Below, piece by piece: positions 4,944 to 15,789 of a stretch of DNA of 64,000 nucleotides (positions are counted from its first letter, which is position 1; each line of letters begins with the position of its first letter). Both the position numbers and the translations under genes were made by a program. The notes beneath the pieces were generated by a model. That model had not been told where the DNA came from. It worked only from the letters and a program-made list of their open reading frames with translations, and ran no database searches. Source of the stretch: a virus; IMG/VR virus record IMGVR_UViG_3300009514_000014, positions 19,956 through 83,955 of that record; one strand, written 5' to 3'.

Positions 4944-5230
4944 TGGCGCCTCTACGACGCTTGATCATCGCCGAGACGGCGTCCAGCACGTGGAGCTACC
5001 ACCTGCGGATCCTTGAGCCCGGTGAAGAACCAAAGTATGGTGGAGGGGCTGGTTTCGCGCTGTGTGGCGCAAAGGTTGGCTGGGACACACAGATGCCAAT
5101 GAGCGCATGGGACAAAAAGGTCGCGCACATTCCAGAGTCTTTTTGCGTTAAGTGCGAGCTAGAAGCCGCAAAGCGAGGATTCACCGTCGCAGCGGCGGCG
5201 GACAGGGAGGAGTCCAGTGGACAAAAGTAG
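4943..5230 (+). CDS. Hypothetical protein with His/Cys metal-binding motif
   Basis: Coupled TGATG start; YH...ALCG...CVKC. Confidence 0.6.
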   Translation: MAPLRRLIIAETASSTWSYHLRILEPGEEPKYGGGAGFALCGAKVGWDTQMPMSAWDKKVAHIPESFCVKCELEAAKRGFTVAAAADREESSGQK

Positions 5231-5588
5231 ACGCGGATTCTTCAAACGGATAGGTCTCGGTGTCGGTGCGGCGGTTGTTGCCGGTTTGCCCGCCAAGGTT
5301 GCCGCAGAACAAGCTCCACGAGTCCTCAAAATCATCAACTGCGTCGAAGGCGCTAACGTAGGCGTGTTCGAACATACCGAAGGGCGCCAATTGTTTCTTG
5401 GCTCCACCGTCTCTGATGGCGTTGTGGATGGCATTGTTGAAGTACCGATGGATGAGCTCGCCGTCCAGACTGTCGTTGTGCGGGTGCGCAAGTGGGGCTA
5501 CGTGCCGTTCAGTCATACTTGTGAGCTGCGCGAGAGCGGGCTCACCATAGTCAGCGCTTACATGCGTCTGGACGAGTTGTTGACCTAA
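5217..5588 (+). CDS. Twin-arginine-signal protein resembling the C-terminal domain of the virion proteins at 35.2 and 38.5 kb
   Basis: GGAGGAG RBS; SRRGFFK plus hydrophobic stretch; VVVRVRKWGYVP..GL..MRLDE. Confidence 0.7.
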   Translation: MDKSRRGFFKRIGLGVGAAVVAGLPAKVAAEQAPRVLKIINCVEGANVGVFEHTEGRQLFLGSTVSDGVVDGIVEVPMDELAVQTVVVRVRKWGYVPFSHTCELRESGLTIVSAYMRLDELLT

Positions 5589-14931: not shown

Positions 14932-15107
14932 AGAGCCAAATCAAGCTGTCAGAGTTGATAGAAGTCTGGGAAATACTACACGTCAAAGACACCGGCGACA
15001 TCGGCTTCTGCGACGTCGACAAAGCCCTCCAGGATGTCGGTGTGACGATCGTAAACGATTGTTCATCGGAGCAGCCGAAAGAGCTTGACCAGCACTCTGC
15101 ACGTTGA
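14928..15107 (+). CDS. Small hypothetical protein (59 aa)
   Basis: AGGAG RBS; TTG overlapping the upstream TGA; open frame. Confidence 0.5.
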   Translation: MKSQIKLSELIEVWEILHVKDTGDIGFCDVDKALQDVGVTIVNDCSSEQPKELDQHSAR

Positions 15108-15113
15108 TAGGGT
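15085..15113 (+). promoter_or_regulatory. sigma70-like promoter for the ncRNA block
   Basis: TTGACC-17-TAGGGT with TGn extension. Confidence 0.55.
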
Positions 15114-15119
15114 CAGCAA

Positions 15120-15405
15120 GTTCAAGTGAGAGACCGTTGGGTGGTAGGTCGTTAAACCGAGGGGGAAACTCCTCAGTGGCCAGCATCACCCTGAAGGGGG
15201 CTAGGATCGAGGGATAGGCGGCGGCGAGCATAGCTGGCGCACTAACCACGGTCTGAGGGATTTGCTTCCAGGCAAGATAAACCGGTCTGGCTGCGGTGTA
15301 AGAACCGGGTCGGGATTGGTGTAAGAGCCTGAGTAGCGGGGATGATGTAAGGAGGTCATCGGCAGGGAGCATCAGCTTTGATCTGTCGGAACCAGACCGC
15401 AGCAT
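15120..15405 (+). ncRNA. Unidentified structured RNA(s)
   Basis: AGACCGT/ACGGTCT and GCTGCGGT/ACCGCAGC closing helices; GAGGGG-GAAA-CTCCTC tetraloop; no convincing ORF. Confidence 0.5.
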
Positions 15406-15408
15406 TCA

Positions 15409-15510
15409 CTTAGGTCACAGTGCAACACTTGAGCCGCTAAGGCGCGCCAACTGCCAGGCCCGGAAGGGAGCAACAGTCGGCGCGCTTTTTTCGTTCAGGG
15501 TATTGACAAG
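15409..15510 (+). ncRNA. ffs: SRP RNA (4.5S-like)
   Basis: Helix-8 motif CAGGCCCGGAAGGGAGCA in a long hairpin (GCGCGCC/GGCGCGC, CTTGAGC/GTTCAGG, GTCA/TGAC). Confidence 0.8.
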
Positions 15511-15568: not shown

Positions 15569-15778
15569 ATGTATCACCACTGCGACAGATGCCGCGAGCG
15601 CGCCTTACCGGCCCTTGCACACTTACACGGGCTAGGCGAGCTTCTATGCTGGTCTTGCACGCAAGGCATCCTTTTGTGCAGAAGAAAAGAAGAGGAACGG
15701 TTGACAGTAGAACGGCTGGCCCTAAGCTATGATCTGCTGCGGGGGATGAACCCCCGCCAACCGAAACTCGCAGCTTGA
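15569..15778 (+). CDS. Small Zn-finger protein ending in LAA
   Basis: CDRC...CWSC; C-terminus QPKLAA. Confidence 0.5.
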   Translation: MYHHCDRCRERALPALAHLHGLGELLCWSCTQGILLCRRKEEERLTVERLALSYDLLRGMNPRQPKLAA

Positions 15779-15789
15779 AGGTAAAGACC

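Follow-up and report, generated by a model that had tools for sequence, protein, structure and literature searches.

SRP RNA is a universal housekeeping RNA, and the closest described counterpart of the element reported here is the bacterial small SRP RNA (4.5S RNA, ffs, RF00169), which is approximately 100-115 nt long. 4.5S RNAs that consist of domain IV only can bind Ffh tightly and are reported to support growth when overexpressed, and the crystal structure of the Ffh M domain with 4.5S RNA indicates that the asymmetric loop contributes to M-domain binding, so a reduction of this loop should lower the affinity for Ffh. According to the literature, the tetraloop of SRP RNA supports early contact between SRP and its receptor. 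A distal site of the RNA, which lies at nt 10-15/96-101 in E. coli (10.1101/378745), is required for GTPase activation and cargo transfer according to PMC5454536 and 10.1101/378745 (citing Ataide 2011), and when the distal stem was shortened by more than 14 bp, docking was impaired, GTPase activity was lowered and cargo transport was abolished (10.1101/378745, citing Ataide 2011). A full-text literature search, the coverage of which was incomplete, returned no paper describing a phage-encoded SRP RNA or a stripped-down tip of it.

The 64,000-nt stretch of DNA analyzed here (the window) represents bases 19956-83955 of an 83,955-base IMG/VR virus record, the completeness of which was estimated as approximately 50%. 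The window encodes a portal protein (PF04860) and a tape-measure-type tail protein (PF10145), and the record contains 42 tRNAs and one tmRNA, which are all co-oriented on the plus strand. The record is a genuine phage fragment, and the initial annotation was thus right to call the element phage-encoded. Domain searches of the record found no integrase (PF00589), no Ffh M domain and no SRP54-type GTPase domain (Ffh/FtsY). The element resembles phage tRNAs and tmRNA as a host-type stable RNA on a phage genome, located in one co-oriented island together with PTH2-like and RlaP-like genes, but those RNAs are full-length and score above the Rfam cut-offs, whereas the SRP copy is cut down to its protein-binding tip.

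The hairpin proper occupies 15439-15488 on the plus strand and is composed of a lower stem, an A/C mismatch, an ACUG/CAGU helix and the SRP tip. Positions 15439-48 pair with 15479-88 in the lower stem (10 bp: 7 G-C, 2 A-U and 1 G-U), ACUG at 15450-53 pairs with CAGU at 15474-77, and the inner 54 nt (15439-15492) folded alone with an MFE of -28.3 kcal/mol (z -3.67). Read from the sequence, the helix-8 tip at 15454-15473 (plus strand) consists in RNA letters of CCAGG (15454-58), CCC (15459-61), GGAA (15462-65), GGG (15466-68) and AGCAA (15469-73), which is the Ffh-binding signature exactly where the initial annotation had placed it. GGAA is a GNRA tetraloop that closes helix 8 on the 3-bp CCC/GGG helix, and CCAGG and AGCAA form the symmetric internal loop with the conserved AGG/AGCA, i.e., the Ffh M-domain site. 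The tetraloop, the 3-bp closing helix and the CAGG/AGCA strands of the symmetric loop are all shared with 4.5S RNA, and the C/A variant adjoining the symmetric loop is found in many bacterial 4.5S RNAs. The phage hairpin differs from 4.5S RNA in that it is only about 50 nt long, is phage-encoded and has its own U-run end. In 4.5S RNA, the asymmetric internal loop leaves three to four 5' nucleotides unpaired across from one nucleotide or none; in the hairpin it has been reduced to one 1x1 mismatch (A15449/C15478), and the helix-5 extension that carries the distal GTPase-docking site is absent; by our own count, the distance from stem base to tetraloop is 23 nt in the hairpin versus approximately 38 or more in E. 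coli.

The Rfam model RF00169 (Bacteria_small_SRP) matched 15426-15504 on the plus strand with 38.3 bits, with an E-value of 1.1e-6 over 551 bases and 4e-8 for the 84-kb record, but this score is 1.7 bits below the curated gathering cut-off of 40, so the match is unlisted at the gathering threshold. The tetraloop, the 3-bp helix, the symmetric loop and the adjoining helix were aligned at the top posterior probability (“*”). At the asymmetric loop, where the model has three unpaired 5' positions, two were deleted and one base was inserted on the 3' side, and in the outer stems sixteen positions were deleted and the remaining outer pairs had low posterior probability. The match is therefore significant yet partial, it concerns helix 8 only, and chance is excluded. 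The initial annotation had offered a sub-threshold model score as a ground for giving up its own reading, and formally the score is sub-threshold, but an E-value of 4e-8 is far from chance. Of the “core of 4.5S RNA” that it had proposed, a look-alike of the Ffh-binding tip remained (38.3 bits, E-value 4e-8) and a full 4.5S RNA did not (less than 40 bits). The hairpin mimics 4.5S RNA in both sequence and structure, and judged from these features the element is probably a phage-encoded truncated SRP RNA helix-8 mimic (4.5S domain IV), putatively bound by host Ffh.

The position of the element was compared among relatives of the phage. One relative of 82,418 bases (G001) was colinear with the record over most of its length, with 62% amino acid identity in the portal. 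The site of G001 syntenic to 15439-15488, the interval flanked by the 287-aa gene and the PTH2-like gene, contained only a promoter-like site and a small CxxC ORF, and the SRP hairpin was absent from it. The SRP-tip hairpin of G001, 53 nt long, was located instead between tRNA-Gly(ccc) and tRNA-Ser(gct) and took up most of the 59 nt that separate them; no SRP-tip motif was found in the corresponding spacer of the record. The metagenome contig L171 had the order tRNA-Leu(caa)-HNH-tRNA-Ser(tga) as in the window, with 51% amino acid identity in HNH, and an SRP tip followed by a T-run right after tRNA-Ser(tga); because HNH genes are mobile, we call it only a probable relative. The 20-mer tip was identical in the record, G001 and L171, while the stems were unrelated and the positions in the RNA island differed. 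No SRP match was obtained in G004, G005 and G006, which are complete but more distant relatives, and the wider lineage therefore does not require the element. In BLAST searches (near and distant) against INPHARED phages, neither the region nor the hairpin nor the 5' domain had a meaningful match, a search seeded with the neighboring phrog_6452 gave one distant locus without an SRP match, and a search of metagenomes seeded with the 287-aa neighbor gave no relatives.

The same tip recurred beyond this lineage. Scanning IMG/VR with an 18-mer core (16 specified bases) returned 44 loci, which fell into three groups. Part of them were chance matches, several of which lay in coding-looking DNA without a paired stem; many were ordinary full-size 4.5S genes at contig ends; and the third group consisted of short hairpins that large viral contigs carry near tRNAs (L007/L008, L015 of 436 kb with terminal repeats, L018, L028, L036, and L041), most of them inside tRNA arrays and some with tmRNA at less than 2 kb. 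A metagenome scan, which required a T-run, returned mostly ordinary bacterial 4.5S genes with an internal T-run, and approximately nine loci were mini hairpins. Among the latter were, beyond L171, the eight loci L115, L116, L155, L163, L170, L193, L202, and L134. In most of the eight, tRNA-Leu(caa) lay directly 3' of the hairpin and T-run (about 0.4 kb farther on in L155 and L170), and tmRNA lay just past tRNA-Leu(caa) in five of the eight, the other three ending too early to tell. The tmRNA tags of these loci (ANDNAVAKAA and similar) resembled the tag of the window, ANDNAYAEPMAQAA. Overall, most of the mini hairpins were located inside or adjacent to phage tRNA arrays, and for several of them a tmRNA was close by. 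As a side observation, sub-threshold matches to YrlA (Y RNA-like, RF02553) were seen amid tRNAs in L041 (2329-2482, 3860-4007, and 6208-6357, minus strand) and L012 (402-458, plus strand), which are contigs that also have mini SRP hairpins.

For 13 mini hairpins from independent viral and metagenome contigs, a gapless alignment was scored at five pairs below and three pairs above the symmetric loop. We found that 94% of these cells were paired versus 63% in shuffles, and the covariation score was 0.744 versus 0.166 in shuffles (0 of 500 shuffles reached 0.744); the core was constant by construction of the search pattern, and the members were chosen after folding was seen. The alignment contained 28 double-sided changes, i.e., the stems had undergone compensatory change, and slid registers gave at most 46% pairing. 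A covariance model built from these hairpins (R1) placed the window hairpin at the top with 52.9 bits, but this hairpin was itself in the training alignment; core-only matches without a paired stem, mostly in coding-looking DNA, reached 17-18 bits on R1 or were unreported. The window hairpin has the variable but paired stem and the location in a phage RNA-gene island by which we provisionally define a class of mini SRP tips. Stem lengths vary from 5 to 16 bp across the class, which indicates that selection acts on the tip only. No Ffh/FtsY domain was found in five large viral records that carry SRP-like RNAs, four of these records being at least 90% complete. The window copy is like the mini hairpins of these large uncultured phages in its tip, its generic stem of 5-16 bp, its tRNA/tmRNA island and the lack of an Ffh gene. 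It is, however, not placed in a spacer between tRNAs: approximately 320 nt of non-coding orphan sequence and a promoter-like site lie 5' of it, and it carries a T-run, an arrangement that resembles L171 and the L115/L116/L155 group.

The first alternative is that the element does not depend on Ffh, but is mainly a terminator or 3' stabilizer, the tip serving some other partner or being a neutral leftover of a captured host ffs; the partner could be another RNA-binding protein, or the tip could act as an RNase-resistant cap. Six T at 15486-15491 (plus strand) directly follow the GC-rich 10-bp lower stem, the last three pairs of which use the first three U of U6, so the hairpin has the GC-rich stem and U-run of a Rho-independent terminator and an intrinsic-terminator-like 3' end. 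The element also ends a non-coding stretch ahead of the next gene, and the complete, more distant relatives do without it. A simple terminator scan did not call the hairpin because its “loop” exceeds 8 nt, and indeed its apical part is far larger than a usual terminator loop. Hairpin and T-run were also found together in L171, L115, L116, L155, and L202, where the search pattern itself demanded the T-run. We infer that a non-coding transcript of the phage is terminated, and thus acquires its 3' end, at the hairpin and U-run. But termination does not call for 20 apical nucleotides that are identical to the best-conserved segment of SRP RNA. By our own arithmetic, the search pattern with its 16 specified bases is expected approximately 3e-5 times in a sequence of the size of the window. 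The same tip sits on unrelated stems at three sites in the lineage and on other large viral and metagenome contigs, and several of these copies have no T-run, the hairpin lying between tRNAs. An element independent of Ffh is for these reasons unlikely, and a helix-8 mimic that may double as a terminator is the reading we prefer.

Two repeats were noticed around the hairpin. A 15-nt inverted repeat (14/15), 15433-15447 versus 15598-15612, has the SRP tip and the beginning of the downstream small ORF between its arms; it is partly accounted for by the palindromic GGCGCGCC, and it could provide an alternative pairing upon terminator read-through. A 16-nt direct repeat (15360-75 versus 15461-76, 14/16) was near chance by arithmetic and was set aside.

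The initial annotation had described a rod of approximately 100 nt with the signature at its tip, and the second alternative is that this rod (15409-15510) is a full functional SRP RNA, which replaces or tops up 4.5S RNA and takes phage membrane proteins through the whole targeting cycle. RF00169 was aligned globally (model positions 1-97), and 15409-15510 indeed folded into a single rod with an MFE of -42.2 kcal/mol (z -3.6), which was equaled by 0 of 200 shuffles. Spare parts for translation surround the element (42 tRNAs, tmRNA, and a PTH2-like gene), and SRP RNAs above the RF00169 cut-off exist in the tRNA arrays of other viral contigs, namely L012:520-612 on a 372-kb contig (57.7 bits) and L022:849-931 on a 194-kb contig (42.1 bits); the L012 record had no Ffh/FtsY domain. 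The SRP RNA of L014 was also above the cut-off, but it is possibly host DNA because that record is classed as a provirus. What speaks against the full rod is its outer stem, CUUGAGC at 15428-34 with GUUCAGG at 15495-15501 (plus strand), the 3' partner of which lies 3' of the T-run and is doubtful as a part of the RNA. This stem would demand read-through of T6, it falls where model positions were deleted and posterior probability was low, and it competes with a better 9-bp pairing of 15426-34 with GUUCAAGUG at 15120-28. The rod is an MFE fold with a doubtful outer third. The copies in relatives measure just about 45-53 nt and are flanked by tRNAs or terminate in a T-run, which again points to selection on the tip only. 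The “many membrane proteins and lipoproteins” that had been adduced for the window were not borne out: in a crude count of 69 putative genes, 13 had a TM-like segment and 2 had a lipobox, an ordinary share in which we saw no excess, as judged without a comparison set. We consider a full functional SRP RNA to be quite unlikely here, and return to the truncated mimic.

The last alternative, that the hairpin is a host ffs fragment retained as attP by a temperate phage integrating into the 4.5S gene, would share with phiEf11, which integrates into host ffs, a link between phage and 4.5S sequence (ffs serves phages as an integration site; PMC12540744) and agrees with the many full-size 4.5S genes at contig ends among the 44 viral-contig matches, but it is very improbable because, unlike phiEf11, the record has no integrase domain (PF00589), and the element is an internal, self-contained hairpin that has both tip arms and a stem different from the flanks common in 4.5S RNA, located in an RNA-gene island far away from either contig end and, in relatives, at other internal sites.

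Upstream of the hairpin, a coding-like 59-aa ORF on the plus strand ends at 15107, and the following 15108-15440 (about 330 nt) contained no coding-like frame among the six frames. A minus-strand ORF at 14983-15405 (140 aa) was rejected, having a non-coding-like codon score and overlapping the 59-aa ORF. A promoter-like site, TTGACC-N17-TAGGGT at 15085-15113 (plus strand), would start an RNA near 15120; the pattern TTGACM-N16-18-TANNNT had 5 matches in the window versus 1.17 expected, and a stricter sigma-70 scan did not call the site. The 5' region at 15120-15434 (plus strand) is folded: 15119-15494 had an MFE of -153.7 kcal/mol (z -3.45), in which 15120-28 closes with 15426-34, so that GUUCAAGUG/CACUUGAGC close a domain of approximately 315 nt and the SRP hairpin stands separately 3' of it. 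This region may share a transcript with the hairpin and may make up the main part of an RNA that has the hairpin at its end, and we infer a non-coding transcript of approximately 370 nt (from about 15120 to about 15490) with the SRP tip as its terminator hairpin. No Rfam family other than RF00169 matched in the 5' region, which ruled out a reading of it as a large SRP or Alu domain, and no homolog of it was found in the examined loci or in INPHARED. The motif GGTGTAAGA occurs twice within 15108-15440.

On the 3' side the non-coding unit is limited by a small ORF at 15569-15778 (plus strand), the translation of which has a zinc-ribbon-like CxxC...CWxC pattern that was also seen by eye, without an aligner, in the syntenic ORF of G001. 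Because its codon score is not coding-like, this ORF is only a tentative gene. A PTH2-like (peptidyl-tRNA hydrolase) frame follows the CxxC ORF (15569-16135, plus strand; PF01981, 28 bits from 15800), with no in-frame start codon for its conserved N-terminal part. The same layout, in which the small ORF runs into the PTH2 frame, was found in G001 (L108:10050-10360, minus strand), so recoding or an unusual start is possible for the PTH2-like frame. Farther on, a 272-aa ORF at 16141-16959 (plus strand) had a non-coding score and overlaps tRNA-Arg at 16431-16509, and the stretch 3' of the PTH2-like gene more likely consists of RNA genes than of a protein gene.

Several protein genes were also noticed within the RNA island, all on the plus strand: an RlaP-type nucleotidyltransferase (PF10127, 4059-4943), a protein with the twin-arginine-like signal RRGFFKR (5217-5588), an OMP decarboxylase (PF00215, 11552-12226) and a lipobox protein with a doubled CXXCH haem motif (PF09699, 12229-12678). 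A PyrF-seeded search of genome contigs for a clue to the host gave no match. An HNH endonuclease gene (PF14279/PF01844, 10886-11404, plus strand) lies between tRNA-Leu(caa) and tRNA-Ser(tga), as does its homolog between the same tRNA pair in L171, and other HNH homologs adjoin the tmRNA genes on the mini-SRP-hairpin metagenome contigs L115, L134, L163, and L170. The product of this HNH gene may act in homing and thereby reshuffle the modules of the RNA island.

As to how the element would work, we propose that a non-coding transcript with a probable start near 15120 would end at the hairpin terminator, and that the resulting hairpin of approximately 50 nt would display the GGAA tetraloop and the symmetric loop recognized by Ffh. 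The record has no Ffh/FtsY gene, so the RNA would act via host Ffh; the tip would bind the M domain, and the tetraloop could still support early contact with FtsY. The hairpin has no asymmetric loop and falls short of the distal site by approximately 15 nt per strand, so the resulting SRP would be defective in GTPase activation and cargo hand-over. The initial annotation had suggested that the RNA replaces or supplements host SRP RNA; replacement is doubtful, since the hairpin is too short for the distal GTPase-activating site and its asymmetric loop is reduced, and it would be no simple full replacement for host 4.5S RNA. A role as competitor or modulator of host 4.5S RNA is slightly favored over that of a reduced-function spare part that would keep Ffh loaded upon failure of the host RNAs, and the latter reading stays alive because RNAs of domain IV only are reported to support growth when overexpressed. 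A further reading, which we consider speculative and rather improbable, takes the SRP tip as a portable Ffh handle of large phages, attached here to the 3' end of an orphan RNA of approximately 320 nt with its own promoter; such a chimera would trap Ffh without GTP hydrolysis or tether it to a new phage ribonucleoprotein. If this were true, trapping of Ffh by the chimeric RNA would shut down membrane-protein targeting of the host.

The Rfam gathering cut-off hides mini SRP hairpins in routine phage annotation. The presence of a tip-only copy next to tRNAs and tmRNA in several lineages of large phages suggests that these phages manipulate or maintain co-translational membrane targeting, and membrane targeting would thereby join the list of host functions that are manipulated by phages.
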